Assembly: GCA_963727525.1 (NCBI GenBank) | Contig: CAVSGO010000007.1 | Span: 2,272,001-2,336,000, forward strand | Direction of reading: 5' to 3' | Origin: an uncultured bacterium | Lineage (GTDB): Bacteria; Krumholzibacteriota; Krumholzibacteriia; LZORAL124-64-63 | Length of the DNA stretch: 64,000 nt | Shown: positions 23,406 through 40,523 of the stretch, in pieces | Numbering within the stretch: the stretch's first letter is position 1 | Layout of the letters: every line of letters starts with the position of its first letter | Program-made: the position numbers and the translations under genes | Notes under the pieces: generated by a model | What the model was told of the DNA's origin: nothing | The model's input: the letters and a program-made list of their open reading frames with translations, nothing else | Database searches by the model: none

Positions 23406-26400
23406 TCACTTCGCCAGTACCATCTTGCGCACCGCCGCGCCATCGGCCGTCACGAGGCGGACCACGTACACGCCCGACGCGACGGTGCGGCCCCGCGCAT
23501 CGGTCCCGTCCCAGATCACGTCGTGCGCGCCGACCGCGAGTTCACCCTCCACGAGTCGTCGCACCCGCTTACCGTCGGTGGCGAAGACGTCGAGGGTCAC
23601 GGGCATGGCGCGCGGTAGCGTGAAGGCGATCGCCGTCGTCGGGTTGAATGGGTTCGGGTAATTGCCGCGCAGGACGACCGCGTCGGGCACCTGGTCGCCG
23701 ACGTCCGTCGACGTGCTCACCGTCAGCGCGATCGGGATGGGGAAAACCTCGCCGGTGCTCGTCGCAACGCGCAACACCGCCTCGTAGGTACCCACGGCGA
23801 GGGTCGCCGCCTGCAACGTGATCGTCACGGCGTCCTCGGTGCCGGCCGCCACGAAGCCGACCGTTTCGGCCAGTTGCACCCAGCTCACGTCGCGCCCGAC
23901 GGTGAACACGCCACTCGTGTCGGCCACGCTGGCGTTTTGGGCATCGCGGATACGAATCCGCGCATACGGTCCCGGGTCGCCCGTCACGAGCCACGTCCAG
24001 CTTCCGGCCGCAGCGTCGACGTCCGTGGCCACATCGGTCCAGGCTCCACCCATGTCGCGTTGCAAGGCGATGTCCACCAGGCCCGACGTATTCCCCGCCA
24101 CGAAGGTGACCGGCAGCTCCTGCCCGATGACCGCCACCGCCCCCTCGGTGGGGGTGTGAAGGGCGACGTACGGCTGGTCGCTGGCCAGGATGACGGAACC
24201 CAGGACCTGATCGGGATCACCGAAGAGGCCGACGTCCTCGAGGACATACTCGAACACGAGGTCACCCACGATATCAGGAGCGAAGGTCAGATTCACCGTG
24301 GCGGTCGCGGTGGTTCCCGCCGCGATGTAATAGAGGAATTCCCCGCCCAACCCGTCCCACGTGGTCAGGACCCCGGAACCCGCCGGGCCGAGCCAGGGAA
24401 GAACGCTGCTACCAGCGTTCATCAGGTCGGTGGCCGTGTTCAGCGTCACGCCGGGCGGGCACTGGAGACGGACCAGCGATAGCAGCGGCAACCAGCTCGA
24501 CCCCTCCGCGTGGACGCTCACCATGATGTCTGCGGTGGTGCCCGGATCGTAATTCGTGGTGTCAAACGTCAGGGTGGAGCCCTGGATGTCGGGCGGCAAC
24601 GGGGTCGCGGTCCGACGCACCACGGCGGGTGGCAAGGTTGCCGGATCCACCACGTCGATCGTGTAGCCGAGTACCGAACCGGCAACGCCGGTGTTGGAGA
24701 TGTGCAGCGTGCGCGTCACCTGGCCGCCCGGCGGCGTCGTGGCTTCGATGGTCGACGGGGTCACGCTTGCGGTCGGTATGGCGACGGCGCCGATCGGCTC
24801 GAAGCGGATGGCGCGGCCGGCCGCGAGCGGCGCCGCGCCGGCGGCGTACTGGTTCCAGTAGGTGTAGAGCAGGCCGCCGGTTCGATCATTGTTCTGGAGG
24901 CCGACGGTGGCGAATCCGTCGCGCGAGTCGGTATTGTTGACCTGCTCGTACTGCAGGATGATCGCGCCGTCACCCGTCGCTGTGGGGTGCCACACGGGAT
25001 CGAGCAGGATGATCTCGAAGTTCTGCATCGCGCCGGAAAAGTCGTTGTTCAGGTGGTACCACTGCACGATGAAGCGGCGATTCACCTCGTCGTGATACGT
25101 GTAGATCTGCGCGGCGCCGAGCTGGTAGAGGTCGTCCCAGAACGCGGCGATCAGGCTGCCCGGGCAGTCCGCGCCGGGTAGGGCGGTGTTACGGTAATTC
25201 ACGAGCGGCGTCTCGCCCATCGCGAGCCAGCCGTTGGAGCAGATCGATACGCGATCGAAATCGACGCCGTAGAATCGGAAGGTGAACGGCAGGTCGATGG
25301 TGCGCGTGTCGTCCTGCTCGAAGCCATGGTCGGTCAGTTCCAGCGGTACACCCTGGCCGCCGTCGTTGGGGTCGAGGGCCACCCAGTCGAACACCGGCGC
25401 ATGGCCGCTCGCGACATCGGTGTCGTCGAAGGCGTAGTAGCCACCGGCCCCCGGGCCGGTGGGCGCGTCGGTCGCGGCGGTGCCCACGGTCACCGGGACT
25501 TCGGCAGTGGTCCGCCCGCCGGCGCCATCGTCGAGCGTCAGGTGCAGCACCGCAAGGTGTCCGGGGAAGCATTCCGCCGCGATCGACACGGCAAACGGAT
25601 CGAGGGCGTTGTCGGCCGTGCTGCCCGCATCGATCGCGCCGTAGACCGCCGCGGGATCCGTGATCTGCAGCCACGGGCTGTCGGTGGCGAGGGTGGCCGT
25701 CACGTTCGCGGCGTCGAGGCTGCCGTCGTTGGCGAGGGTGATGACGAGCGACCCCGACTGGCCGGGTTCGAACGTGGCGCCCGCGCTCCACACGAGCCCA
25801 CTGACGCCAAAGGCCGCCGCATGCACCGTCACCTGGACCACCTCCATCCACACGTCGCTGCCGCTCGCAAGCTGCAGCGGCCACGACACCACGGTGCCAT
25901 CGGGCGCCGCGGCGTCCACGGCAACGGTGGCGGGCGTCGTAGCCCACACCGTGGCGCCGGGCGCCACGTCGCCGAAACTCAAGGCGCCGGCCATGACGCT
26001 GCCCCACGGGTCTCCACCCTCGAGCTGGCCCGTCACGGCCGTGGCCGTCTGCGTGCCGTGGTTGGTGATGGCCAGGGCGAGCGTCACCGTCTCACCGGGG
26101 TTGAGCTGACCGTCGCCGTTGCCGGCGCTGTCGTCGAGGGTACGATCGGCGAGGACGCAGGCGACGTCGACCACGCCTACCGAGAGGCTGCCGCGGTACG
26201 GCAACAGGCCGTCGCCGGTGACTGTCACGGCGCAGGTGCCCGCAGTGAGCGGCGGCGTGACCAGGGTCACCGCACCCGTGGCGTCGGTGACGCCCGACAC
26301 TTGCACCTCACCGTCACGGAACAGGCAGACCCGTGCGCCGGCGACCGGCGTCGAGCTGTCGAGCACGGCGACCGTCACGGCACCCGTCGCCACCGACACC

Positions 26401-28163
26401 TGGGCCGGGTGCTCGACGGTGAGCACGCGCGGCACGCTCAGCCAGATCGCGGTGGCCGGGTCGCCCATCAGGTTGTTCCACACGGCCCAGATCTCCGCAT
26501 TGTCGGGCTCGGCCAGATAGTAGTTGGTGTACAACTCCAGCTTGCCGGAGGTGTGCGCCGCCCCGATGTGCGGATTGTCATGGTTCAGCAGCCCGTTCCA
26601 GGCACCGACGTAATAGCAGTTGTTATAGCGCGTGTGGGTGCCGAGGGTGGCGGTCGCGATCGCGGCCACCGCGCCGCCATTGGGGGCACGTAAGAAGGCC
26701 TCGGAGCGGCAAACCGTGGAACCGGCGAAGGATCCGGTGTCGCAGGTCGGTAAGATCGCGACGGGCAGACGGGCGCCATTCTCTAGAGCGTTGATCAGGC
26801 CGGTGGAGATGCCGCTCATGTCGAAGAAGCCGCGATAGCCGAACAGGCTCTTACCCCGGTTCAGCGACGAGTAGAAGAACCCGGAAAAATCACCGCTCCA
26901 GGCGGTGTCGACGGCCGTGTAGCCATGGGCCTGGAGCTGCCCCTTGAGCCACTGATTGACGTAGATGGTGGTGATGCCCGACGAGGCGGGGTCACCGATG
27001 AGGCTGGCCTCGGTGAACCAGGCCGTGTCGTCCATGGGTGGCGCTGTCTCGTAGCCGACGATCTTGGCCACGATCCGGTCGAGCATCGCGAGATCGTCGA
27101 AGGTGATGCGCCCGATGTGAGCGTCGGGCAGGATGTCGTCGCCATCGAGGAAGGTGTAGTAGTTGTCGCCTTCGCCGGCGTACCCCGACAGCGACTCGTG
27201 CCAGGTCGGCACGGCCCAGGTGCCGTACGTGTCGCCGGCGATCAGCACGTCGGTGAGTGGCGGCAGGTCGGGGTCGTCATACAGGGACTGAAGCTGCGCC
27301 TTGACGTCCGTGTTCGGACCCGGTCCGTGGATGATCTCAACGTGGTACCCCTGTTGCCGGCGCCAGGCGATGAGCGGCTGCAGATGGTCGAGCGCCGTCT
27401 GGTAGCCGTACACGAGGGCCCAGGTGCCCGGGCTGTCACCGGGCGCGGCGACACTGCGGTCGTCGGGCACGCCGAGCACCGCAGCGGGCAGCTGGCCGAT
27501 CAGCGCCTCGTTGGGCGCATGTCGCCGGCTTGCCGGTGCGGTCACGCCATCGCGCGCGTCGAAGCGCAGCTCGATCTCGACGCGGTTCGCCACCACGAGT
27601 CTCCCGCTCACCGGGTCGTAGGCCACGGGGATCACGTTCAACGGTACCACCGCCTGGCCCGCCAGCAGCTGCGGGGCGCCGACCACCACCGTCGGTCCGC
27701 CGTCTGTGCCCAGCTGCGTCACCCCGGCCGCCGTCGTCACGGGTGTCCAGCCGGGGCGGGCGTAGGCGGTCGTATCCAGCGCGAACCGGGTCGCGCTGGC
27801 GGGCTGCACCGGTAGCAGACGTCCGGCCGGCAGCTCGTGAGTCGTCGCCTTCACGACCCGTGCCCCCACGCGCGCTCCCGCCGGCACCGCCACGAGGCGC
27901 CCCACCGAGGGTAAGCCCGGCGTTCCGGGCGCGCCCACGAGACCGGCGCGATCGAGGCTCAGCGTCACGTACGGGGTCCCGTCCAGCTCGACGACCTCGC
28001 GCTGCAGATCCGGGATGACGACCTCGAGCCGCAGCGACGTCCCATTGCGCGCGAGGATGCGCCACATGGCGTCACCCGCCGCGGGTGCGGCGTCGGACGG
28101 CTGGACGAGGAGGAGCAAAAAAAGGACGGAAGGCATCGTCTTGAAGGCGCCACGACGGAGCAT
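23406..28163 (-). CDS. Peptidase C25 (gingipain-like) protein: propeptide, C25 domain, Ig-like repeats and FlgD/T9SS-like C-terminal domain
   Basis: Propeptide 'GxPGLP...VAVP'; 'WRRQQGY', 'DNYY..LDGDD.LPD..IGR', 'KIV.YE', 'TCDTG.F...SEAFL', 'NLMGDP'; NYPNPFNP...KMVLAK tail; AAGGAG RBS. Confidence 0.9.
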   Translation of the reverse strand: MLRRGAFKTMPSVLFLLLLVQPSDAAPAAGDAMWRILARNGTSLRLEVVIPDLQREVVELDGTPYVTLSLDRAGLVGAPGTPGLPSVGRLVAVPAGARVGARVVKATTHELPAGRLLPVQPASATRFALDTTAYARPGWTPVTTAAGVTQLGTDGGPTVVVGAPQLLAGQAVVPLNVIPVAYDPVSGRLVVANRVEIELRFDARDGVTAPASRRHAPNEALIGQLPAAVLGVPDDRSVAAPGDSPGTWALVYGYQTALDHLQPLIAWRRQQGYHVEIIHGPGPNTDVKAQLQSLYDDPDLPPLTDVLIAGDTYGTWAVPTWHESLSGYAGEGDNYYTFLDGDDILPDAHIGRITFDDLAMLDRIVAKIVGYETAPPMDDTAWFTEASLIGDPASSGITTIYVNQWLKGQLQAHGYTAVDTAWSGDFSGFFYSSLNRGKSLFGYRGFFDMSGISTGLINALENGARLPVAILPTCDTGSFAGSTVCRSEAFLRAPNGGAVAAIATATLGTHTRYNNCYYVGAWNGLLNHDNPHIGAAHTSGKLELYTNYYLAEPDNAEIWAVWNNLMGDPATAIWLSVPRVLTVEHPAQVSVATGAVTVAVLDSSTPVAGARVCLFRDGEVQVSGVTDATGAVTLVTPPLTAGTCAVTVTGDGLLPYRGSLSVGVVDVACVLADRTLDDSAGNGDGQLNPGETVTLALAITNHGTQTATAVTGQLEGGDPWGSVMAGALSFGDVAPGATVWATTPATVAVDAAAPDGTVVSWPLQLASGSDVWMEVVQVTVHAAAFGVSGLVWSAGATFEPGQSGSLVITLANDGSLDAANVTATLATDSPWLQITDPAAVYGAIDAGSTADNALDPFAVSIAAECFPGHLAVLHLTLDDGAGGRTTAEVPVTVGTAATDAPTGPGAGGYYAFDDTDVASGHAPVFDWVALDPNDGGQGVPLELTDHGFEQDDTRTIDLPFTFRFYGVDFDRVSICSNGWLAMGETPLVNYRNTALPGADCPGSLIAAFWDDLYQLGAAQIYTYHDEVNRRFIVQWYHLNNDFSGAMQNFEIILLDPVWHPTATGDGAIILQYEQVNNTDSRDGFATVGLQNNDRTGGLLYTYWNQYAAGAAPLAAGRAIRFEPIGAVAIPTASVTPSTIEATTPPGGQVTRTLHISNTGVAGSVLGYTIDVVDPATLPPAVVRRTATPLPPDIQGSTLTFDTTNYDPGTTADIMVSVHAEGSSWLPLLSLVRLQCPPGVTLNTATDLMNAGSSVLPWLGPAGSGVLTTWDGLGGEFLYYIAAGTTATATVNLTFAPDIVGDLVFEYVLEDVGLFGDPDQVLGSVILASDQPYVALHTPTEGAVAVIGQELPVTFVAGNTSGLVDIALQRDMGGAWTDVATDVDAAAGSWTWLVTGDPGPYARIRIRDAQNASVADTSGVFTVGRDVSWVQLAETVGFVAAGTEDAVTITLQAATLAVGTYEAVLRVATSTGEVFPIPIALTVSTSTDVGDQVPDAVVLRGNYPNPFNPTTAIAFTLPRAMPVTLDVFATDGKRVRRLVEGELAVGAHDVIWDGTDARGRTVASGVYVVRLVTADGAAVRKMVLAK

Positions 28164-28409
28164 GGGAGGACTCCTTTGAATCAATGCTGTCTATATTGAC
28201 TAATAATACAGAAGTCGGCGCTATCGAGGCAATTCCCGATCAATGCGCTTTCCGGTCGGCGACGGCTCGTCCCGGATCACCGGACCACTCGGTTGCGCGA
28301 ACTCCAGTTCTCCCGGTCGAGGGCATGCAGCACCGCACCGGTGGGGCCGGCCGCGTGCGTGACCGCGGCGCGTAGCTTGGCCCCCGGCGCCAGCACACCC
28401 TCCCGTCGT

Positions 28410-29612
28410 TCATGGGCGGCTCTCCGGCATCGTGAAGACGAACACGTTGAACGAAGCGAAGCGGTGTGAACCGTAAGCGATACGCGTCGCATCGGGCGAC
28501 CAGCGCGGCCCGTACTCCGGATCCGGCGTGCTGATGAGCGACGCCTTGTGCGAGCCGTCCGTGTCCATGATCCAGATGTCGCGGGAATTGTCGCTGCGCT
28601 CGTAGACGATCTTGCCGTTCACGCCCCAGTCGGCCCAGCCGCCCGTCTCGGGGTCGGTGGAGAGGGCGGTGCGGTCGGCGCCCGGTATCGTGGTCGTCTT
28701 GAAGATCTGTGTAGCCACTCCCACGAAGTCCACGAAGACGATAGCGTCGCCGTCGTTCGGATTGAACCGAGGATTGGCGCCCGTCGTCAGTTCAGAGACC
28801 GCACCGCCGGAGTGCAGGAGCCGGATGACGAACGTCCCGATGTCGTTCTCGGAGCTATAGGCCAGGGTCACGCCGCCGGAGACGTCGCGCGACCATGCGG
28901 GCGTGCGATCCAGATAGCTCTGCATGGCAATGTCGGGAGCAATGTGCATCATGCTCGAGAAGTCCGGTGCGGCGACCCAGATCTCGTAGTCTCCATCCGT
29001 GTTGCCCGATCCCGTCGAGTTACTGCCGAAGGCGACGAACCCGGACTGGAAGTTGATGTCCGGCCAGTTCTCGTCGTACAGCGTGTTCGTCACGCGGATC
29101 GGCGCACCGCCAGTGGACGCGACGCGGAAGAGCTCGTACTGACCGTCCACGCGCTCGGTGTAGTAGATCCACGCGCCGTCGGCGGACCACGTCGGCTCAC
29201 CGGCTCCGCTCCCCGACTGCGTGTCGGTGAGCTGGATAACGCCCGGCTCCCAGACGAGGACGCTTCCCGCGGTAATGGAGTCGCCGCCAATCTCGACATC
29301 GACGGCCGCCGGGTTGGCCGCGACGTCGGGCATCACGGCGATGATCTCGTCGTCGGCCCAGCTCGTGATCGTCGCCATCTGGCCACCGATACGAACAACC
29401 CCGACCGCACGTGCCGTGCCGAAGCCACTGCCGGTGATCGTCACGAATGCACCCGGCCCGGCACCGAAGGGATACACGGCGGATATCATCGGTCCACCGC
29501 CTCCGCCACCAGCGTTACCGGAGTCGGTGGGGGAGTCGCCGCAGCCGCTGAGGAGTGCGGCAAACAAGATTGCGCCGGGGAGAATGACGTTCCAAGCGAT
29601 GCGTAGGTGCAT
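28410..29612 (-). CDS. Lipoprotein with IPT/TIG domain and TolB-like (PD40) beta-propeller
   Basis: Lipobox LSGC; 'VTITGSGFG...ITSWAD' IPT domain; 'PTWSADG' and 'PRWSPDATRIAY' repeats. Confidence 0.85.
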   Translation of the reverse strand: MHLRIAWNVILPGAILFAALLSGCGDSPTDSGNAGGGGGGPMISAVYPFGAGPGAFVTITGSGFGTARAVGVVRIGGQMATITSWADDEIIAVMPDVAANPAAVDVEIGGDSITAGSVLVWEPGVIQLTDTQSGSGAGEPTWSADGAWIYYTERVDGQYELFRVASTGGAPIRVTNTLYDENWPDINFQSGFVAFGSNSTGSGNTDGDYEIWVAAPDFSSMMHIAPDIAMQSYLDRTPAWSRDVSGGVTLAYSSENDIGTFVIRLLHSGGAVSELTTGANPRFNPNDGDAIVFVDFVGVATQIFKTTTIPGADRTALSTDPETGGWADWGVNGKIVYERSDNSRDIWIMDTDGSHKASLISTPDPEYGPRWSPDATRIAYGSHRFASFNVFVFTMPESRP

Positions 29613-29801
29613 CGAGCTCACCTCCAGTTAGTGGGTCTTCTCCAGTGGATGGCCGCGGTGCTGCAAGAGTAGGAGGCATCTTGGGGCATGGCGTCCGCTC
29701 TCCACATCCGCCCCTCTCACCCGCCCCCCATCCACAGCCGGAGGCTCTGCCTGATTCCTTGCCTTCCCGGCGCGCGCCATCGGCACGTCGTCGGCCATCG
29801 A

Positions 29802-32141
29802 TCACTTCACCAGCACCACGCGCTGCCGCGCCGATGACCTGCCGTCGCGCAGGGCCATGAAGTAGACGCCCGCCGGCGCCGGGTGGCCCGCCGCATCGCG
29901 TCCGTCCCAGATGACGCGGTGCGAGCCGGCGTCCAGGCCCGACCGATCGAAACGGCGCACCCGCGCGCCGCGCACGTCGAAGACGTCGATGGTGACGTTG
30001 GCTGGCGCGGGCAGATCGAAGGCGAGGACCGTCGAACCCGCGAAGGGATTCGGCCACGCCGGCCGCATGGCGGTACGCGTCACCCCGGCGGGTTCGGGGG
30101 TTGCAGTACTCGAAGACCCAGGATGCCAGACCGCGATGTGCGACGAGCCGGTCAGGCCCGCCTGCACGAACTCGCCCCCGACCCAGAGCTGCCCGTCCTG
30201 CGCGTCCAGCGCGTGACCTCGGTTGTCGAGACCCGAGCCGAGCGCCTGCCAGGCAATGCCATCCCAGCGCGCGATACGGCTGACCGGCTGCCCCTCGGCC
30301 TGAGCGAATTGGCCGGTCGCGTAGACGTCTGCACCGATCGACGCGATGTCGTCCACCGTGGTGATGATACCACCGCCAACTGCGTGCCAGTCGGTGCCGT
30401 CCCACATCGCGACGTGACTGGCGGGCAAGCCGCCGGCCTGACTGAAGGTCCCCCCCACGTAGAGCAGGCCGCCGACCTCGTGGATCGCATAGACGGCGCC
30501 GTTGGTGCCGGAGCCCAGCGGCTGCCACGCGTTGCCGTCCCAACGGGCGATGTTGTTGACCACGACGCCGTCGACGGTGGTGAAGCTGCCGCCCATCACC
30601 GGATCGCCCTGGTACGAGCCGAGGCTGTAGAGGATCTGCACGCCGCCGACGACACTCGTGCCCAGGGGATCGAAGTCGCTGCCGTTCCAACGGCCGAGCG
30701 TGTACTGTCCGTTCCACCGACCGTTGGCATACAACACGCCGCCCAGCGCGACCACGCCGCTGACGCTCGACAGCTGCGAGCCCGTCCCCATCGCGCTCCA
30801 TTGCGACCCGTCCCACCGTGCGATGTTGGAGACGGTCACGCCGCCGGCGGTGGCGAAGGAGCCGCCGACGACGAGGTCGTCCTCGAAGGTCGCCATGGCG
30901 CCGACGAAGTTGATATTGCCGCGGGGAATGCCGCTGCCCATCGGTTGCCAGGCGGCGCCATCCCAGGACGCGATCACGCCGGTCACGTTGCCGACGCGGG
31001 CGAAACCGCCACCGACGACCTCGGTGCCGTTCCAGTCGTGGAAACACTCCACCGTGCCGCTGGCGCCCTGACCCGAAGCAATGGGCGACCAGGTGCCGTC
31101 GTAGCGCGCGAGGCCCGGCATCCAGGCGCCTCCGATCGTACTGAATTCACCACCGGCGATCAGATCGCCCTCCCGCTCGACGAAGGTGTACGCCCCGCCG
31201 CCGGTAATGCCGATGGTGTTCCAGAAGATGCCGTTCCAGAGGTTGATGTTTCCCCAGGCGTCACCGGCCACGACATCGCTGCCCAGGGTGCCCAATGCGA
31301 GGGCCTCGCCGCCGAACGACGGCTCGCCCAGCGCGCTGAACGACGAGCCGTTCCAGGCCACGACGCCGTCGGTCACAACGCTACCGGCGCGCGCGAAGTA
31401 GCCGCCGACGATGAGCGAGCCGCCCGACACGGCCAGCGCGCTGCCATAGGCGTTGTCGATGTCGCCACTGTCGTCGCTCAGACCGCCGCCCACGCTGGAC
31501 CAGGCACTGCCGTTCCAGCGCGCGAGGTTGCCGGCGACCACGCCGTCGACGATGTCGAACTCGCCGCACACGTAGAGCGAGCCGCCGTAGCTCGCGACGT
31601 CGGCGACATCGCCGTTGGTGCCGTCGTTCATGCCGTTCCAGCTGGTGCCGTTCCAGATGGCGACACCACCGGCCGTGACCGCGCCGCCGCCAACGCTCGA
31701 GAAAAAGCCGCCCACGGCGAGGTCGGCGTTCCAGACCGATAAGCTCGACACGCTGCCACCGACCCCGCCGCCCACGTCGACCCACTGCGCGCCATCCCAG
31801 CGCGCCAGGCCGCCAGTGATTTCGCCGCCGGCATAAAGTTCGTTGTTCCAGACGACGAGAGCAGACACGTCCGCATCGAAGCCGTCGCCCATCGCGTTCC
31901 ACTGGGTCCCATCCCAGCGGGCAACGTTGCCTACCGCGAGGTCGCCCACGGCCGTGAATGCACCGCCGATCACGAGGTCGCCGTCGAAGACGGTGGACGC
32001 CGCGAGATTGCCGGTCACGCCAGGCGCACCGAAGCGCGTGTCCCAGTTCTCGTCGCCGGGAACGGCGAGGGCGAGTTGACAGGCGAGGCAAATCAGCGCA
32101 ACGAACGTGAGAAGCGGGAACTGCCAGCGACCGTGGGCCAT
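29802..32141 (-). CDS. Secreted 'ARWDG..W' beta-propeller repeat protein (Rax2-like repeats) with FlgD/T9SS-like C-terminal domain
   Basis: More than 10 repeats of 'GGxF..AGG....IARWDG..W..LG.G'; WPNPF...RVVLVK tail; AGGAG RBS. Confidence 0.85.
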   Translation of the reverse strand: MAHGRWQFPLLTFVALICLACQLALAVPGDENWDTRFGAPGVTGNLAASTVFDGDLVIGGAFTAVGDLAVGNVARWDGTQWNAMGDGFDADVSALVVWNNELYAGGEITGGLARWDGAQWVDVGGGVGGSVSSLSVWNADLAVGGFFSSVGGGAVTAGGVAIWNGTSWNGMNDGTNGDVADVASYGGSLYVCGEFDIVDGVVAGNLARWNGSAWSSVGGGLSDDSGDIDNAYGSALAVSGGSLIVGGYFARAGSVVTDGVVAWNGSSFSALGEPSFGGEALALGTLGSDVVAGDAWGNINLWNGIFWNTIGITGGGAYTFVEREGDLIAGGEFSTIGGAWMPGLARYDGTWSPIASGQGASGTVECFHDWNGTEVVGGGFARVGNVTGVIASWDGAAWQPMGSGIPRGNINFVGAMATFEDDLVVGGSFATAGGVTVSNIARWDGSQWSAMGTGSQLSSVSGVVALGGVLYANGRWNGQYTLGRWNGSDFDPLGTSVVGGVQILYSLGSYQGDPVMGGSFTTVDGVVVNNIARWDGNAWQPLGSGTNGAVYAIHEVGGLLYVGGTFSQAGGLPASHVAMWDGTDWHAVGGGIITTVDDIASIGADVYATGQFAQAEGQPVSRIARWDGIAWQALGSGLDNRGHALDAQDGQLWVGGEFVQAGLTGSSHIAVWHPGSSSTATPEPAGVTRTAMRPAWPNPFAGSTVLAFDLPAPANVTIDVFDVRGARVRRFDRSGLDAGSHRVIWDGRDAAGHPAPAGVYFMALRDGRSSARQRVVLVK

Positions 32142-32741: not shown

Positions 32742-33320
32742 ATGATGCGATTCTCTCTACTTATCGCCCTTTCGTTGTGCCTGTTGCTGACGGGCGGGGC
32801 CGCTGGCGTACCGGCTCAGAGCGAGATTCCCGCCGCTGAGGCGCTCGACACCGCCGTGAGTAAGTTCACGCTGCAGGGCGACCGGCTGATCCTGACCCAC
32901 AGTCACGCTCGGGCGGTCGACCGCGAAGCCGGCCCATCGGCGCTGCAGTCTTTCGATCAAGCGATCGTCTCGGTTGACGGCGTATTGACATTCAATGGTT
33001 CCGAGGTCTCCACCGACAAGCGCGACCGCAAGCTCCTGCGAAAGTTCTACCGGGAGGTGCGCGAACTCGATCGTGTGAACACCGACTTCTCAGCCGAAGT
33101 CGAGTTGGTCGTCAAGGCCAGCGTTGGCGACCGCGCTGAGGCCAACAAGGGTGGAGCTGCCGACGACAACCTGGCCGACCGCGTGGCCAGCGCAGTTGGG
33201 GGACTCGAGAAATCGGCCCACCGGATCGAGGCCCAGGGCGAGCGCGTCATGAAGATCGCAGCTGAACTGAAAGAGCGAATCCCGGCCCTGACCGATTTCG
33301 GCTGGAACCTGGATGACTGA
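32742..33320 (+). CDS. Exported helical protein, YggN/DUF2884-like
   Basis: GGAG RBS; signal peptide; 'DG.L.FNG.EV.....RKLLR.FY' and 'L.ERIPAL' pattern. Confidence 0.5.
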   Translation: MMRFSLLIALSLCLLLTGGAAGVPAQSEIPAAEALDTAVSKFTLQGDRLILTHSHARAVDREAGPSALQSFDQAIVSVDGVLTFNGSEVSTDKRDRKLLRKFYREVRELDRVNTDFSAEVELVVKASVGDRAEANKGGAADDNLADRVASAVGGLEKSAHRIEAQGERVMKIAAELKERIPALTDFGWNLDD

Positions 33321-33579
33321 GTTCACGGGCAAATTTCCTATTCCCGCCAGTCTATCCTTACCATCTTTCCCGCCAGGTCAAGAGGCTAGGCATCATGGGG
33401 GCCTGGCGTCCTCACTCCACAAACCAACCACCGCTCTCTCTCAGTTCGAAGACGGATTGGCGTTCTCCGCTGACGTTGGTTAAGATCCGGACTGCCCAAC
33501 TCTTGCCGATCATCGCTACACCCTACCGTTTCGCAAACAAGCGTCAGTTCTGGGCCTGCTGTGGTCCGGGTATTCTCAC

Positions 33580-33930
33580 GCGCAGCTCGTCGGATCGGGT
33601 GCGCACCCAGAGTGGCGAGCGGGTCATGCTCCCGTTGAGCGACACCCAGTCGGGCACGGCGACCTCGCCGCTGGGATAGTTGCCGCGGACGATATTCACG
33701 TACGCATCGGTCGGGTCGGTCGTCGGTGGCGGTGAAGGCGGTCCAGAGGAAGTCGTAGCTGACGGAGGTGTGGTTGTCGATGATCACATGCAGCGCCGCG
33801 TCCAGCGGCTCACCCTGCAGCTCGGCCGCGCTGGCGTCGTACCCCGGCGGCGGTGGGAAGTCGTAGGAGGTGAACGTGTCCACCGCGGTGGCGATGGGGT
33901 TGCCATAGATGTCGGCGACGACGTCACCCG
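33580..33930 (-). pseudogene. Chimeric remnant: N-terminal part of an endonuclease-I-type extracellular nuclease fused to an unrelated fragment
   Basis: 'LQGEPLDAALHVIIDNHTSVSYDFLWTAFTATDDRPD' resembles the start of Endonuclease_1 domains; the reading switches at a CCGACCGA-like repeat near 33705-33725. Confidence 0.5.
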
Positions 33931-34147
33931 CACCTACACCGTGGTCCTTTCAGAACCGACCCACCTCAGCGCCCGACGCCCATTCACCGACATGGAGACG
34001 ACGACGCCGGCGCCGTGTGTCCGGACATCGGCTCGACGTCGCCCGACGGGAACTTTGACTCCCGGCCCATGTTGACGATATTCTATCAATAGCCATCGGG
34101 TCGCCGATGGGGACTTCAATCGAAACCCGGACGGTCCGACTTTCGCC

Positions 34148-34552
34148 ATGCCGAGCCTACGTATCATCCTCGCCGTTCTCGGCCTTGCCATCATGGGAGC
34201 AGGAACGCAGTCCTCTCCTGTCAGCGGCCCCGGTCGACTTGCCTCGGCCCGGGTCGTGAACACCCCGGCTGTCCCGGTCGCCGAAGGTCGCCCCTGCCAC
34301 GCGTGTCGGCGAAGCGCCGGGAACGGCGAACGCCGTACCTGCCCCAGTAGGCCCGCGTCTCCTTGCGGCCCGGAGACGCCATGCCCGCAGTGGCAACCGT
34401 GCGCAAGTGGTGGCGTGTTTCTGGCGCCGGCGACCTTCCAGTTCGTACTCCCTCAGATGCGCGGCAGGGTCCAGCCGGTGGTCCACCGCCCCAACGAGAT
34501 CACATTGACCCCACCTGTGCCTCCCCCGCGCGGCCCTGTCCTTTCCTGTTGA
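34148..34552 (+). CDS. CutF/CruR (DUF2946)-like leader protein: signal peptide, CxxC, C-terminal polyproline arrest-like motif
   Basis: MPSLRIILAVLGLAIMG signal; CHAC plus further Cys; C-terminal TPPVPPPRGP; lies 47 nt upstream of a Cys/His/Met-rich gene. Confidence 0.7.
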   Translation: MPSLRIILAVLGLAIMGAGTQSSPVSGPGRLASARVVNTPAVPVAEGRPCHACRRSAGNGERRTCPSRPASPCGPETPCPQWQPCASGGVFLAPATFQFVLPQMRGRVQPVVHRPNEITLTPPVPPPRGPVLSC

Positions 34553-34593
34553 CGGTTCCTGTGTCATCGAGGTGTATCTCTACAAGAAGGGAC
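34538..34593 (+). promoter_or_regulatory. Anti-Shine-Dalgarno stem linking the leader ORF end to the RBS of the downstream gene
   Basis: GTCCTTTCCTGT (34538-34549) pairs with ACAAGAAGGGAC (34582-34593) at 11/12 positions, one of them G-U. Confidence 0.6.
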
Positions 34594-34599
34594 GAGACG

Positions 34600-35100
34600 A
34601 TGAAAACCATGCATCGCCTGACAGTTGTCGCCGTTATATTGACGGTCGTGATGATCGTGGCCGGACTGACCCTGGCCGCCGACAAGCCGGCCAAGGAGAC
34701 CACGGACAAGCCTGCATGCAGTGCTAGCTGCACCGCCACCTGTCCGGGGGCGACTGCCGCGAGCGACGCCCCGACCGCCGCAGCCGAGGCGCAGCCCACC
34801 AAAGCGACCGACGCCCCTGCGGCCACCGCAGCGGCGGATCCTCCCACCTGTCCTGCCCAGCAGGATGGGATGTGCTCACCTGAGCACCGCTCGCAGATGC
34901 AGAAGGACGGGACGTGCTCCGCCGAGCATTGTGCGCAGATGCAGAAGGACGGCACGTGTGCGGCCGAGCACTGCACGCAGATGCAGAAGGATGGGAAGGG
35001 CACGGCCGAGCATTGCGCACAGATGAAAACAGATGGCAAGTGCTCGGCCGAGCACTGCGCACAGATGAAGCAAAACGGCGAGGTGTCCGGCGCGAAGTAG
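34600..35100 (+). CDS. Exported Cys/His/Met-rich tandem-repeat protein (putative metal-binding, metallothionein-like)
   Basis: Signal peptide MKTMHRLTVVAVILTVVMIVAGLTLA; CSASCTATC; Ala/Thr/Pro linker; five 14-aa repeats. Confidence 0.75.
   Translation: MKTMHRLTVVAVILTVVMIVAGLTLAADKPAKETTDKPACSASCTATCPGATAASDAPTAAAEAQPTKATDAPAATAAADPPTCPAQQDGMCSPEHRSQMQKDGTCSAEHCAQMQKDGTCAAEHCTQMQKDGKGTAEHCAQMKTDGKCSAEHCAQMKQNGEVSGAK
34864..35073 (+). repeat. Five tandem 42-bp coding repeats (consensus DGxCSAEHCAQMQK)
   Basis: DGMCSPEHRSQMQK / DGTCSAEHCAQMQK / DGTCAAEHCTQMQK / DGKGTAEHCAQMKT / DGKCSAEHCAQMKQ. Confidence 0.95.
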
Positions 35101-35127
35101 ACCAGCCCGGAATCTTCCCTCGACACA

Positions 35128-35157
35128 GGGCGCCCTCCATTCGGGGGGCGTCCTTTT
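35128..35157 (+). terminator. Rho-independent terminator
   Basis: GGGCGCCCTCC-attc-GGGGGGCGTCC followed by TTTT. Confidence 0.75.
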
Positions 35158-35536
35158 CGCGCTCCGGCTCATGACGTCGGCGGCCAACGTCGACGAGTAC
35201 CACCTGCCCGCCGCCTTCGCGACCCGCATCGCCGCAAGCTGGCGCGTCGGACTATCGCGTGAGCGCGGGCGGTCCGAGATTGCAGCGAGTTCCTCGTGTG
35301 CGGGAGCGGTGCCTCGCGCGGTGGGTGCATGGAACGATGCCCGCAAATAGGCGTCTGGATGTTGGACGGTCGCGCGGTCAATAGTGATTCAGCGAATGAA
35401 ACAATTCTGAACGACATCTTCCGCGTCCGGAGCGATCCGCGCGACTATCCGGACCAGGACACGGGTTGCACCCCGGAACTGGTGGCTGACCCGTGTCGCT
35501 GGTCCGGATTTGCCTGTCTGACGGCCTACGCAGCCG

Positions 35537-38500
35537 TCATTTCACGAGCTGCAGCTTGCGCACCGTGGTGTAGCCCGGAGCGATGAGCCGCGCCAGGTAG
35601 GTGCCGCTGGCGACGCCGTCGCCGCCGTCACTGTGCCCGTCCCACACCGCCTCATGTCGGCCGGCGGGCAGATCCTCGCTGAGCAGGCGGCGGACCAGCC
35701 GACCGCGCAGATCGAAGATCTCGAGCCGGACGCGACCCGCGAGCGCCAGATCGAAGGCGATTCGCGTGCTCGGATTGAACGGGTTGGGAGAGATGCCGCG
35801 CAACGCCGTCACCGTCGGGGTGTCCACCGTGGGCACCGGCGTGGACACCTCGTCGAAGGTCAGCTCGTAATGCGCGCCATTCGCGCCATCGGCCGCGCCG
35901 ACCCTCCAGACAGCCAGGCAGTAGTAGCCGGTCTGGGGGACGTCGACGATCATCGTCTCGTCGGCACCGGCGCCGGCGATCCAGACCTGACCGACGATGC
36001 CGGCCGAGGCCGACTTGGCATGGAAAGGCAGCTGGCCGCGATGCAGCGTCAGACCCCAGTCGACGGGCGCGTTGTCGGTCTGGTGCAGCGTGATCTCCCG
36101 CAGGCCCGCCTGCAGCCAGATCTCGTGCAGGGCGATGGTCTTGCCCACGGTGAGGCCGAAGGAGCCGTAGGTCCCCGCCGGATCGGTGTCCAGCCAGTGC
36201 GAGGATACCGTCTGCGCGCTGTAGTCCTCGGTGCCGGAGAGACCAAGCACGCCGACGTCGAACTGTCGCGGCGACGTCGCCCGGAAGTTCACCAGCAGGT
36301 AGTCGGACTCCCCCGGACCCCACACCGACACCGCCTGGGCGATGGTGAAGCCATTCAGCACCGAGTCGATCTTCTCGTGCAGGCGCAGGTCGACGTCGCT
36401 GGTGTCGCCCGGCATCGCCGCGACGGCGAGCCACTGCGCCTCGTCGCCCGCCGGCGCGGGTACGGGGGTGCGCAGCCCGTCGCAATTGTACCAGGTCGGA
36501 TCCGTGTTCCAGGCCCAGACTGCCGGGAAGCCGCCCGTGGGATCGGGCGGGGCCGGGCGCACGATCGCCGCGGAGGCGGCCAGGGCCAGCGGCGACCAGA
36601 CGTACTGCTTGCCCATGGCGTTGTTCGTCTCGTCGCCCTCGACCACGGTGTTGCCCGAGTCCGGGAACATGGAAAGCGTGTGGCGGCCGCCGCTCACGGT
36701 CTGCGGGTAGGGGTAGTTGCGGATGCGGTCGGTGAAGCCGGCGAGCTGGCTGATCTGCTCGCCCAGTAGCGTCGAGCCGTCCAGGTAGGTCATGCTGTCG
36801 AAGAAGCTGGCCGCGCCAGCGTCCTGGTTGCGGAACTGGACGTTGATGTAGGTGGTCGCGGCACCGCCGACGAGGCCAAACGGCAGCGGCGTCGACGTCG
36901 GGGTGCCCGGTGCGCCGCTGGTCGGCACCAGGGGGGCGTACCAGCCGCCGCTGGTCAGCGGCACGAGGTCGGCCGGCCGCGTACGGGCGTACACCGTCGC
37001 CAGGAAGTGGCCCGACTGGCCCGCCGGGATGTCCCGCGGGTCCTGCCAGACGATCAGGCCCTGGGTGGCGCCGCCGTAGGTGAAGTCGATCTTGGCGAAG
37101 CCCGTGGCGTCGGTGACCGTGAGATTGTCCTCGTCGTCGAGGCCGGCATGGACGACACCGGCGTGCATGACCTTCATGCGCACCGGTCCGACTATCGGGT
37201 CGACCTGCATCGTCACCGTGCCGTAGTTGGTGCCGCCACCGCCGGGCAGCGTGAAGTGCCGCAGCGCGAGCGGCTCGTTCGGGCTGACCAGCACGCTGAC
37301 ATCACTGTCGGTGGCCAGCGAGGTGCTGGCGATGCGGCGAATCTGGAAGCCGTAGCCGTCGAAGGCGAAGTTGATGACCCCGACGTCCATGACCGACTCG
37401 GTGGTCTGACTGTTGTTGGAGAAGACGGCTTCGACGCAGCCGGCCGGCCGGTAGGTGGCGGCCTCGGTGTCGAAGTAGCCGAAACCGCTGGTCGGACTGC
37501 TGAGGTGGGTGTGCAGCCGCAGGTCGAAGTCGGAGGCGTCGTCGTCGGCGACCATGACCGCACCGACGAAGGTGTCGGAACCGAGTCCATAGGCGAAGCC
37601 GTCGCAGTTCGGCGCCGAGAGCAGGCCATGGGTGAAGCCGCCCCAGGCGTCGGGCGGGCGCTGGCGCGTGGTCCAGCTGCCGTTGCTCTGTAGCGTGAAC
37701 GGATACCAGACGAACTGCCGCGAGTAGATGTTGTCCTCCTCGTCCGCCTCGGGCATCTGTTCGTAGGCGTCGGCCCACATCTTGAGCGCGTGGCGGCCGC
37801 CGCGGACCGCCCACGGGCCCACGTTCAGGAAGGCCCGGTCCACGAAGCCCTCGAGGGGATAGATGGTCGTGTACCAGGCCAGCGCTCCGTCCTCCCAGAA
37901 GTTGAGGCGCAGGTTCGGGCTGGTGGTCAGCTCGCCCGTGTTTTTGACGCGGATGTTGAAGTAGGTGTCGCCGTTGCCGAGGAGCACCACGGGCAGGGGC
38001 GCCGAGACGGCCGTGGCGTCGCCGGTCAGGCGCGGCACGATGGGATAGGGCCAGGTGCCGGCGTTGGCCTCGATGTCGGCCGCGATGTAGGCGCGGATGG
38101 TGACCGGGCCGAAGGCGGTGTCGGCACCGCCGTTGCCGGCGCGGTCGACGGCGCGCACCGTGAACCAGTACACGCCGGGGGCGAGGTCGTCGGAGGTCCA
38201 GCTCGTGGCCGTCGTCTCGACCACCGTGTCCGGCGTCTGGGGCGCGTTGGCGCTCACGCGCACACTGTAGCCGGCGACGCCGGAAAAGGCGTCCCAGGAC
38301 GCGTTCCAGACGAGGTCCACGGTACCGTCGGGCGAATCGCCGGAGGTGACGTGGCTGGTCGAGGTCAGACCGCTGAGCGCCGACGGTGGGTCGTTGTCGA
38401 GGTTCGTGAAACGCGCGTTGGTCGCCGCCATCCAGACCGCGTCCGCCGACTCCGGGTAACGGTCGCGCAGGTCTCTGATGAGCTGGCGGGAGGTGACCGG

Positions 38501-40072
38501 GTCATCGCCGGCCTGGGTCATGAGCACGCGTTGCGCCGACCAGGTGACGGCGTCCTGGCCGCCGGGCAGGCCGTTGGGGTCCGTCTCGTTGGCGCTGTCG
38601 ACGATGTCCTGCAGGAAGGCGGCGATCATGCCCTCGGTGAGGTCGGCGTTGTCGAAGTCGTCGATGTGCTGCCAGTTGCACTGTAACACCGATTCGAAGT
38701 CGTAGTCGAAGATCGGCGAGAAGCCGTAGAGCGCCGGCCAGGTCGTGGTCATCGCGTTGGACATCCAGTCGGGGAAGCCCTCCTGGATGGCGTCGCCGCC
38801 GGTCTCCTCGCACCAGGGGCAGTGCCGGCAATCCTCGCCCGGCTCGTCGCAGCGGCCGCCCGCATTGCAGTAGTCCGAGCCGTTCGTCTCGGTGTAGAAC
38901 CGCTGCCAGTGGTGTCCGTACTCGTGGCAAATGGTGCTCTCGTACCACTGCTTGAAGGCGGGGATGTAGATGGTCCCCCAGAACGGCGTGTAATGCGGCC
39001 AGTCGCCGTCAGGCCAGGAAATGGTCACCTGGTCGAGGCCGCCGTACCCGTTGTCGTTCATCCAGCGCCAGCCCCGCGTGGCCGAGGCCAGCAGGTTCAG
39101 CCCCGGGTAGTGGGACTCGGATCCCGGGTGGCGGGTCCCGAAGTTGATCACGTCGCCGGTGAAGTCGTCGCGAGTGGGCGTGTGCCAGGCGTAGGTGGTG
39201 TTCCAGACGCTCGGATAGACCAGGTCGATCTGGGAATTGGCGGCGAGGAACTCGACGTAGATGTCGGGATCCTCGGAACCATAGTACCAGAACGTGATGT
39301 CGTACCAGCCGTCGGGTCCGAGCGAGGTCTGCGCCAGCAGATCGTCCCATTCCCAGTCCTCGTCGTAGACGTTGATCGTGACGCCGTCGGCGCCCATCGT
39401 GCGGCCGTCGCCCTGGTAGTCGCCGCTCGAGTCGACGGAGTTCCGGTCGTAGATGAAGCGGCCGTGGACGCGGATGGTGCGCCCGGTGGTCGCGGGATCG
39501 GTCGGCGCCTTGCGGAGGTCGCGCACGTTGGCGCGGACGATGGCGGCTGGTTCGGGGCGCGCGTAGGCGTCGCTGGGGGTCACGGCGGGCCCCAGATCGC
39601 TACCGACGATCAGCTCGGCGTCGGCTCCCCCGAGGGCGGAGTCCAGGCCTTGCGGCAGGAGACTGAAGCTCTGCACCGCCGAGCGGCCGCCGATCTGCAG
39701 CGAGATCTCGATGGGTTGTGACGGGTCGTTGCACATGAGCTGGACCGGATAGGTGACCGGCTGCAAGCCCTGCAGGTAGATGCTCTCCGGCAGCGGGAAG
39801 CTGACGATGTCCCAGGCGAGGCCGCCATCGGGCGTTTGGCTGGTGCGCAGTTCGGGCGCCGTGGCCAGGAGCGTGTTCGCGCTCGTGACCTCGAGATCGA
39901 AGTTGAAGGCCTGGCCCACCACGGGCAGGGCGCCGTCGGGTACGGTCAGGTGGATGCGCACGTCGGGGCCCACGTCGGCCAGGGCCGGCGCGGCGAGCGC
40001 CAGCGCCAGCGCCAGCGCCAGGACGAGGACGCCTGCCGGCGCGCGGTGGCGGCGGGATTGGGCGGTTCTCAT
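35537..40072 (-). CDS. Large secreted zinc-metalloprotease-like protein (HEXXH...E) with FnIII, duplicated CARDB-containing module and FlgD/T9SS-like C-terminal domain
   Basis: Signal peptide; CHEYGHH followed by 'AIQEGFPDW'; two 'GGRH.L...E.DE.NN/DN...Q.VW.P...PPD..GG...NCDG' units; ISPNPFNP...KLQLVK tail; AAGGAG RBS. Confidence 0.85.
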   Translation of the reverse strand: MRTAQSRRHRAPAGVLVLALALALALAAPALADVGPDVRIHLTVPDGALPVVGQAFNFDLEVTSANTLLATAPELRTSQTPDGGLAWDIVSFPLPESIYLQGLQPVTYPVQLMCNDPSQPIEISLQIGGRSAVQSFSLLPQGLDSALGGADAELIVGSDLGPAVTPSDAYARPEPAAIVRANVRDLRKAPTDPATTGRTIRVHGRFIYDRNSVDSSGDYQGDGRTMGADGVTINVYDEDWEWDDLLAQTSLGPDGWYDITFWYYGSEDPDIYVEFLAANSQIDLVYPSVWNTTYAWHTPTRDDFTGDVINFGTRHPGSESHYPGLNLLASATRGWRWMNDNGYGGLDQVTISWPDGDWPHYTPFWGTIYIPAFKQWYESTICHEYGHHWQRFYTETNGSDYCNAGGRCDEPGEDCRHCPWCEETGGDAIQEGFPDWMSNAMTTTWPALYGFSPIFDYDFESVLQCNWQHIDDFDNADLTEGMIAAFLQDIVDSANETDPNGLPGGQDAVTWSAQRVLMTQAGDDPVTSRQLIRDLRDRYPESADAVWMAATNARFTNLDNDPPSALSGLTSTSHVTSGDSPDGTVDLVWNASWDAFSGVAGYSVRVSANAPQTPDTVVETTATSWTSDDLAPGVYWFTVRAVDRAGNGGADTAFGPVTIRAYIAADIEANAGTWPYPIVPRLTGDATAVSAPLPVVLLGNGDTYFNIRVKNTGELTTSPNLRLNFWEDGALAWYTTIYPLEGFVDRAFLNVGPWAVRGGRHALKMWADAYEQMPEADEEDNIYSRQFVWYPFTLQSNGSWTTRQRPPDAWGGFTHGLLSAPNCDGFAYGLGSDTFVGAVMVADDDASDFDLRLHTHLSSPTSGFGYFDTEAATYRPAGCVEAVFSNNSQTTESVMDVGVINFAFDGYGFQIRRIASTSLATDSDVSVLVSPNEPLALRHFTLPGGGGTNYGTVTMQVDPIVGPVRMKVMHAGVVHAGLDDEDNLTVTDATGFAKIDFTYGGATQGLIVWQDPRDIPAGQSGHFLATVYARTRPADLVPLTSGGWYAPLVPTSGAPGTPTSTPLPFGLVGGAATTYINVQFRNQDAGAASFFDSMTYLDGSTLLGEQISQLAGFTDRIRNYPYPQTVSGGRHTLSMFPDSGNTVVEGDETNNAMGKQYVWSPLALAASAAIVRPAPPDPTGGFPAVWAWNTDPTWYNCDGLRTPVPAPAGDEAQWLAVAAMPGDTSDVDLRLHEKIDSVLNGFTIAQAVSVWGPGESDYLLVNFRATSPRQFDVGVLGLSGTEDYSAQTVSSHWLDTDPAGTYGSFGLTVGKTIALHEIWLQAGLREITLHQTDNAPVDWGLTLHRGQLPFHAKSASAGIVGQVWIAGAGADETMIVDVPQTGYYCLAVWRVGAADGANGAHYELTFDEVSTPVPTVDTPTVTALRGISPNPFNPSTRIAFDLALAGRVRLEIFDLRGRLVRRLLSEDLPAGRHEAVWDGHSDGGDGVASGTYLARLIAPGYTTVRKLQLVK

Positions 40073-40085
40073 GTCATGACTCCTT

Positions 40086-40523
40086 TTAGCGCTTGTCGCC
40101 GGCAGCCGCCGGGGCACCGAGGCCGGTGTCGACGGCCAGGCGCGTGCGCGCGGCCGTCAGGATCTGGTCGAGTTCGGTGACGGCCGCCGCATCCTCGCGC
40201 TCGTGGGCCAGCCGTAGCTGGATGCTCAGCAGGTCGATCTCGAGCTGGAGCTTGAGCGCCGCGATCTCGTGTTGCGCCGCGGCGGCGGCCTCGCTGCTGG
40301 TGGCGGCGCCATAGCGCGCCGTCAGCTCGGTCAGGCGGATCCGGAAGGTGTCGCGCAGGTCGGCGACCTCGCGTTCCAGCGGGGTGGCCGCCGGGCTCAC
40401 GGTCACGACGGCCGAGTCGGCCGGCGCCGTTGCGATCTGGTCGACCGCGGCGTTGGCGGTGCCATGGAGACAAGCGGTGGCGACGAGAGCCGCCAACGGG
40501 ATCCAGCGTGTCCAGTTCTGCAT
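40086..40523 (-). CDS. Small exported coiled-coil protein, operonic with the metalloprotease-like gene
   Basis: GGAGG RBS; signal peptide; amphipathic helices; its stop codon abuts the RBS of the 40072 gene. Confidence 0.75.
   Translation of the reverse strand: MQNWTRWIPLAALVATACLHGTANAAVDQIATAPADSAVVTVSPAATPLEREVADLRDTFRIRLTELTARYGAATSSEAAAAAQHEIAALKLQLEIDLLSIQLRLAHEREDAAAVTELDQILTAARTRLAVDTGLGAPAAAGDKR

Follow-up and report, generated by a model that had tools for sequence, protein, structure and literature searches.

This report concerns a two-gene unit at positions 34148-35157 of a 64,000-nucleotide (nt) stretch of DNA from an uncultured Krumholzibacteriota bacterium (LZORAL124-64-63; GCA_963727525.1, CAVSGO010000007.1:2,272,001-2,336,000, + strand). 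We refer to the whole stretch as the window; its local DNA is 65% G+C, and all features of the unit lie on the + strand. The 5' gene, ORF1 (34148-34552), encodes a Cys-rich leader protein of 134 aa that is predicted to be exported, ends in PPVPPPRGPVLSC, and matches no Pfam or NCBIfam family; the 3' gene, ORF2 (34600-35100), encodes a 166-aa Cys/His/Met repeat protein, also predicted to be exported. The final four codons of ORF1 form the 5' arm of a helix (34538-34549, GUCCUUUCCUGU) whose 3' arm (34582-34593, ACAAGAAGGGAC) holds ORF2's Shine-Dalgarno sequence (SD), GAAGGGA at -14..-8, so that the 5' arm is in effect an anti-SD. The unit closes with an intrinsic terminator (35127-35160), a 12-bp G+C-rich stem at 35127-35154 followed by CUUUUCG; the hairpin has a z of -3.0, and 0/200 shuffles were equally stable. 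An earlier reading of this DNA (hereafter the sequence-only reading) had proposed that the unit is a metal-sensing switch operated by a ribosome that stalls near the end of ORF1.

The ORF1 protein begins MPSLRIILAVLGLAIMGAG and ends TPPVPPPRGPVLSC. A hydrophobic run at residues 6-20 (34163-34207, IILAVLGLAIMGAGT) is predicted to act as an export signal or membrane anchor, and it is followed by a Cys cluster (34295-34402) made up of C50-H-A-C53, C65, C73, C79, and C85; one more Cys, C134, lies outside the cluster. Close to the stop codon is the sequence PPVPPPR (34511-34531), a candidate ribosome-stalling site with its PPP codons at 34520-34528.

Relatives of this gene had to be sought stepwise. 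Single-sequence searches of 5.8 billion proteins returned no relative of ORF1 or ORF2, and a scan of genome contigs matched one contig only—that of G008, a member of another genus, in which a six-frame search of 40 relatives had found one syntenic pair. Profiles of ORF1 were built in steps (A1, then A3) and run over all 208 Krumholzibacteriota species genomes, giving 5 and then 13 matches. Nine of the 208 genomes carry ORF1 relatives at E<=9.2e-8, all in the family to which the window belongs (genera g1, g9, g11, and g14); four weaker profile matches (E 0.0025-0.008) were rejected, as they contain stops and no proline-ending open frame. The first profile, made from two sequences, picked up just 2 representatives in 1.84 billion proteins, and the second found 6 in the 5.8-billion collection, which are unnamed or called 'hypothetical protein' and have no Pfam domains; gene callers had predicted genes of the ORF1 family in other assemblies (P0001-P0007). 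A first metagenome scan with poor patterns gave no match, and a later one with a closer alignment gave 4 loci, 2 of them new (L042 and L044). In total the pair recurs in 11 distinct loci—9 genome loci and 2 metagenome contigs—and in 11/11 ORF1 is followed by a spacer of 40-70 nt and then by a small Cys-rich open frame with a signal-peptide-like start.

Members of the ORF1 family are 125-142 aa long with 6-12 Cys. In a 14-sequence alignment the N-terminus is variable, a hydrophobic xVFxxP stretch is visible, and C50, C65, and C79 (numbered as in the window copy) never vary, with C73 nearly constant; a hydrophobic run of 13-26 residues is found in 13/13 members examined. A C-x2-C, a putative metal-binding motif, occupies one alignment column in 13/14 sequences. 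The window copy is without the second Cys of this motif and has C79-x5-C85 instead, along with its separate C50-H-A-C53; it keeps the family's distance from the first Cys to the proline motif. That motif, P[PQ]x[PR]PP[RKQ], stands 2-6 residues before the stop in 13/13 members examined. The stretch from the C-x2-C column to the prolines is ungapped in 14/14 sequences, despite identities of only 17-36% to the window ORF1, and counting from the second Cys of the C-x2-C, the proline motif always starts after exactly 39 residues (its last Pro being at 45). The frame is open in all 10 loci with a complete gene (that of L019 is cut by a contig end), and six pairs, whose dS reaches ~1.5, gave ratios of nonsynonymous to synonymous substitution rates (dN/dS) of 0.27-0.75. 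These comparisons indicate that ORF1 is a conserved protein-coding gene under purifying selection; a Cys motif, a fixed spacing, and a proline motif near the stop together suggest the anatomy of an arrest peptide.

ORF2 starts with the signal-peptide-like sequence MKTMHRLTVVAVILTVVMIVAGLTLA, followed by AD, and the predicted signal peptide covers residues 1-26. In the window it has 12 Cys, 6 His, 8 internal Met, and no aromatic residues, with CSASCTATC at residues 40-48; its coding sequence contains about five tandem repeats of 42 nt (14 aa) of the type CSAEHCAQMQKDGT (34862-35070; Tandem Repeats Finder, period 42 nt, 4.4-5.0 copies, 79-80% matches). In 9/9 loci tabulated the protein is 115-187 aa long with 12-22 Cys (7-17%) and 0-3 aromatic residues, and DGK(C)-type motifs recur by eye in the printed sequences. 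Seven ORF2 proteins scanned gave no metallothionein family at E<=1 and no Pfam family above its cut-off, the sole Pfam match among them being a sub-threshold zf-HC2 in the window copy. An AlphaFold2 model of ORF2 (mean predicted local distance difference test 60, predicted template modelling score (pTM) 0.30) was too weak for a fold search. By composition—small, Cys-rich, and low in aromatics—ORF2 may be called metallothionein-like. What we take to be its closest known systems are the bacterial metallothioneins (SmtA/BmtA, PmtA) and the periplasmic sponges or stores (SilE/PcoE, Csp1). ORF2 proteins resemble the metallothioneins in their small size, their 7-17% Cys, their many Lys, Asp, and Glu residues, and the near lack of aromatics; unlike the known bacterial metallothioneins, all of them have a predicted signal peptide, and compared with these systems the window copy has His and Met as well, in a C-x4-C-x2-M motif that is repeated.

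The two genes are joined by the helix between the end of ORF1 and the SD of ORF2. In the window 11 of the 12 arm positions are paired, 10 by Watson-Crick pairs and one by G-U, and the remaining one is a C.A mismatch; this helix occurs in both the minimum-energy and the centroid fold, and the SD is paired with the end of ORF1 with a probability of 0.90 and unpaired with one of 0.05. The minimum-energy fold pairs the ORF1 end with the ORF2 SD in 9/11 loci, the exceptions being L029 and L042; the probability of this pairing is 0.49-0.98 in 8/9 genome loci, and the duplex energy is low against other windows of the same locus (p 0.02-0.05) in 8/9. The SD itself reads GA[AGT][AG]GGA at -14..-8 in 9/9 loci aligned, and the register of the 3' arm is constant (-14..-1). 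The pair types differ between subtypes: L002 and L028 differ on both sides in 6/7 pairs at -1..-7, and in L002 and L019 the arms are identical while the loop has wholly diverged. The anti-SD lies at or across the ORF1 stop codon in all loci, as the last 4-5 codons of ORF1 (...YYU UCC UGA) in the window, L002, and L021/L028 types, and straddling the stop, with CUCCUC just past it, in the L020/L027/L030 type; because the position of the 5' arm relative to the stop varies in this way, no single column structure fits the alignment (A7). In the last type (L020, L027, and L030) a local hairpin, GUCGG-xAUGx-CCGAC, also has the ORF2 start codon in its loop, and the word GUCGGC recurs at the end of ORF1; because of this recurrence, other pairings could form there in which the AUG, along with the SD, is either hidden or exposed.

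Much of the sequence-only reading is borne out by these results: the leader features that it listed (an N-terminal hydrophobic segment, CHAC, further Cys, and a proline C-terminus) are all found in ORF1, the terminator is as clean as described, the 11/12 pairing was reproduced, the gene pair was found in related genomes, and the putative target is neither an oxidase nor a TonB receptor but a Cys-rich repeat protein of the stated composition.

We lean towards the view, which we hold to be somewhat probable, that the unit is a CutF-like switch in which polyproline stalling of a nascent chain, in a new and narrowly distributed leader family, controls an exported metallothionein-like protein. During the synthesis of ORF1 and its passage out of the cytoplasm, the Cys cluster would meet a thiophilic metal, most likely Cu(I) and possibly Zn, Cd, or Ag, and this contact would alter the dwell time of the ribosome on the polyproline and termination region. 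A dwelling ribosome would keep the anti-SD arm unpaired and so leave the ORF2 SD free, and the periplasmic metal-binding protein would be made; fast translation and release of ORF1 would let the helix re-form and turn ORF2 off. The sign of control could be either, with metal prolonging the stall (as for CutF) or relieving it (as for CruR), and induction by metal would be the more sensible direction for a metal sponge.

The model for such a switch comes from two known leaders. CutF, from the Rhodobacter capsulatus cutFOG operon, ends in P109EPEGPPPRL118 and needs its PPP and EF-P (bioRxiv 10.1101/2025.02.05.636593); a gene for EF-P is present in our genome. ORF1 resembles CutF in its small size (134 vs 118 aa), a PPPR near the C-terminus, a Cys motif for metal, and an export signal, which in ORF1 is predicted, and in both systems a short spacer leads to a same-strand gene whose SD is shielded by a CU-rich anti-SD helix. 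The two differ in that CutF ends in GPPPRL while the window ORF1 has PPVPPPR and 6 more residues, that CutF has a single CxxxC while the ORF1 family has 6-12 Cys, and that the anti-SD of CutF lies in the spacer while that of ORF1 falls, in most loci, within the last codons. The target of CutF is a multicopper oxidase; that of ORF1 would be an exported Cys-rich protein. The tails of ORF1 proteins also fit a looser rule, 'PP within the last 15 residues' (PMC9973294). CruR (Bp2923 of Bordetella pertussis) has the stall as its default, with copper relieving the arrest, and acts through Rho-dependent termination (PMC9426467); it shares with ORF1 export (predicted for ORF1), a CXXC, a C-proximal proline motif at a fixed distance (45 there, 39 here), and its place at the head of an operon, one tied in its case to metal homeostasis, and differs in having RAPP rather than PPxPPP, a 162-nt spacer, and a TonB-dependent transporter as its target. 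The suggestion that a pairing with a metallothionein-like target is undescribed agrees with the main texts on CutF and CruR, in which 'metallothionein' occurs 0 times, although their supplementary neighbour lists may hold such cases.

A second leader of this kind lies in the same genome. A scan for small open frames with PPP in the last 15 residues gave 160 of 14,237, of which 13 passed a filter for a hydrophobic start and Cys/His, most of them off-frame noise. One is a 117-aa, predicted exported, Cys-rich open frame that ends APPPPPRTTVLRI (G000:C7:2076663-2077103, - strand; L045:4167-4517:-). It lies 77 nt 5' of an OEP gene (E 1.7e-22), whose operon also includes an ACR_tran gene (E 1.8e-143; L045:6-4086:-)—an RND-type efflux operon, with a TonB_C gene just upstream—and in the fold the bases just past its stop pair with the SD of the OEP gene. 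It has no Pfam match, and only its final 10 residues can be aligned with the ORF1 family. By analogy, the organism appears to use the same leader design in a canonical metal context. Because this leader precedes an efflux operon, and CutF-like genes most often have as their neighbour an OEP gene of an RND metal pump (PMC9973294), the metal reading of ORF1-ORF2 is strengthened by the same analogy.

Several results weigh against a CutF-like switch, and we gather them in this paragraph and the next. The sequence-only reading had linked the leader to DUF2946, the family of CutF and CruR, for which Roy et al. (PMC9426467) give as rules a CXXC, an RAPP, a spacing of 45 residues kept within 1-2, and an export signal. 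The family comparison did not uphold this link: 0/6 members of the ORF1 family match anything in Pfam and NCBIfam at E<=10; PF11162 (cut-off 23.7 bits), run over the whole genome, does not match ORF1, with no match for the window ORF1 at E<=1; and hhalign of 13 family members against five local DUF2946 proteins gives a probability of 0.6%, aligning the C-x2-C only. RAPP is found in 0/13 members examined. None of these sequence tests places ORF1 in DUF2946. A language-model search placed clusters of CzcI, DUF2946, and DUF6660 among the nearest named neighbours (0.93-0.94), which is a lead and not evidence. Canonical DUF2946 genes do occur in the phylum: PF11162 matches 6/208 genomes at E<=0.001, three above the cut-off (L035, L036, and L037), with L038 and L040 just below, and within these searches none was seen in the nine genomes that carry ORF1. 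Their products resemble ORF1 in host lineage, an N-terminal hydrophobic segment, a C-x2-C, and a late Pro motif, and differ in their RAPP/RGPP-type tails (...PRAPPALPA, ...TRAPPAA) and in having 2-4 Cys. The DUF2946 gene of L036 directly precedes a 428-aa open frame.

The statistics and geometry of the helix are the other difficulty. Folding of the end of ORF1 with the spacer, as the sequence-only reading had suggested, did give the helix in the minimum-energy structure; the z values, -0.39 for 34500-34620 and +0.22 for 34529-34602, are not exceptional, and the p of the duplex is 0.19 with dinucleotide shuffles as the reference and 0.022 with other windows from the same locus. Taken by itself, the helix of this DNA is no better than chance for 65% G+C; the functional case rests on the related loci. 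Among these, L021 (p 0.35), L042 (p 0.29), L044 (p 0.13), and L029 (SD pairing 0.11) are weak. The expected covarying stem was recovered in part: a helix with differing arms is present in the 9/11 loci, but pair partners were assigned per locus by RNAduplex, which guarantees pairing by construction. In a cross-pairing control the cognate arms did not stand out: they ranked 4th-8th of 24 and were single best in 0/18 representative sets. A ribosome covers about 12-15 nt 3' of its P-site. In the L002, L020, and L021 types the arm begins 3-4 nt past the proline codons, and a ribosome held at PPP covers its start; in the window the arm begins 9 nt past the last Pro codon, and for this reason the same ribosome would reach only its first 0-4 nt. 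The proposal that a paused ribosome covers the 5' arm is only partly right, as in the window such a ribosome would barely get to it. With a simple, crude footprint mask on the mRNA folds, a PPP stall raises the unpaired probability of the window SD from 0.05 to 0.35 but that of the L027 SD only from 0.00 to 0.01, and a mask for a terminating ribosome frees the SD as much or more in 7/9 loci. Two further points concern the target and its setting: in exported Cys-rich proteins the cysteines may be engaged in disulfides instead of binding metal, and among the genes adjoining the unit in the window there is no metal-homeostasis gene. Taken as a whole, the CutF/CruR logic proposed for this locus keeps its conserved leader, its recurrent pair, its helix in most loci, and its fixed Pro-Cys spacing, while DUF2946 kinship falls away and the stem statistics are modest.

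Because a terminating ribosome does as well as or better than a stalled one, the structure fits plain translational coupling equally well, and a specific role for stalling would rest on the anatomy of the ORF1 protein. Under such coupling ORF1 would be a functional Cys-rich partner at the membrane or in the periplasm (e.g. a metallochaperone, a thiol-redox partner, or a maturation factor for ORF2) with structural prolines and no metal-dependent stall, and the helix would merely tie ORF2 translation to ORF1 being translated to its end; we regard this as a serious alternative, if on the whole a doubtful one. The position of the anti-SD at the stop codon throughout the loci speaks for it, as does the size and Cys content of ORF1, which exceed what a pure leader needs. 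However, AlphaFold2 finds no fold in ORF1 past an N-terminal helix at residues 2-17 (pTM 0.18, from the shallow 14-sequence alignment), and the dN/dS values are loose for a structural protein. An invariant proline motif beside the stop, at a fixed distance from Cys, is the signature of an arrest peptide rather than of a folded partner (PMC9426467), and the second polyproline leader of this genome precedes an efflux pump, not a Cys-rich partner.

The anatomy of the unit can't tell the sign of control, and this leaves room for an arrangement like that of CruR, in which the stall would be the default and keep ORF2 on, and a ligand at the nascent Cys cluster would relieve it, so that ORF2 is shut down, either as the helix refolds or by way of Rho. 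CruR itself is described as operating in this way (PMC9426467). The ligand could also be the periplasmic thiol/disulfide or sulfide status instead of a metal, and habitat labels of salt marsh metagenomes (in small shares) are a weak hint of sulfidic settings. We nonetheless think this unlikely: the spacers are short (40-70 nt) compared with the 162-nt, Rho-dependent cruR-bfrG spacer, and turning a metal sponge off as metal appears makes little physiological sense. Far less probable still is that ORF1 is a chance open frame in G+C-rich DNA over a long, structured 5' leader of ORF2. The G+C content at its third codon positions (GC3) is 0.72, barely above GC1 and GC2 (ORF2 has a frame-specific 0.79 and the large neighbouring genes 0.87-0.92), an antisense 136-aa open frame spans the same DNA, and the single-sequence searches were without relatives; but a frame that stays open with its motifs kept in 10/10 complete loci, at dS up to ~1.5 and dN/dS <1, contradicts it. 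Returning to the favoured stalling switch, we also put forward, tentatively and as something that may well not hold in full, a broader form: the ORF1 proteins would be exported polyproline arrest sensors of a separate family, restricted to this lineage, that came to the CutF/CruR design by convergence and control a class of previously unrecognised, signal-peptide-bearing metallothioneins with DGKC-type repeats, the cue being perhaps a periplasmic thiophilic metal or thiol/sulfide redox, and the helix arm having shifted relative to the stop between subtypes while its register on the SD side stayed fixed.

Upstream of ORF1, a promoter scan found 2 sites where 0.3 were expected. The promoter region (34049-34084) holds GGAAC (34049-34053)-N17-GTTGA (34071-34075), which resembles the promoters of extracytoplasmic-function sigma factors, overlapping a sigma-70-like TTGACT-N16-18-GATATT/TATTCT (TTGACT at 34055-34060, the second element ending at 34084). 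The GGAAC-N17-GTTGA pair stands 90-100 nt 5' of ORF1 in 5/8 loci (the window, L002, L021, L028, and L029). Genome-wide it is not enriched (7 matches against 9.8 expected) and is at a promoter position at the ORF1 locus only, and it was dropped as a regulon motif on the genome count. A hairpin in the 5' untranslated region, CCAUCGG-GUCG-CCGAUGG (34093-34110), appears in the fold of 34090-34150, a segment with a folding z of only -0.89. On the other side, 3' of ORF2, G+C-rich inverted repeats were seen by eye within 90 nt in 9/9 loci printed. With a promoter of its own and one terminator, ORF1-ORF2 behaves as a self-contained operon or cassette, as judged from its layout and because the genes flanking the pair differ among loci.

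The neighbours in the window (23406-32141 and 35537-40117) are large secreted proteins with C-terminal FlgD_ig domains, including a C25 (gingipain-type) peptidase, beta-propeller proteins, and a CARDB protein. Just 5' of the promoter, at 33317-33949, the frame with high GC3 flips near 33700 from a + frame (33540-33660) to an apparent - frame (33720-33840). This segment may be gene debris; its description as transposase and nuclease debris was dropped, since neither translation has a Pfam match.

If the stalling switch is real, nascent exported peptides that sense the outside of the cell would not be limited to DUF2946, or to Proteobacteria and Bacteroidota; an uncultured sediment phylum would have such sensing too, either from a separate origin or in a form too diverged to be recognised. 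The output of the switch would be new as well—a secreted metal-buffering protein rather than a pump, an oxidase, or an importer. With ~130 codons, one helix, and one reporter-sized target, the family is a compact natural test case, suited to asking how Cys-metal chemistry beyond the membrane reaches a polyproline stall within the ribosome. In anaerobic sediments, exported metallothionein-like proteins would then be one component of envelope metal handling that may have been overlooked.

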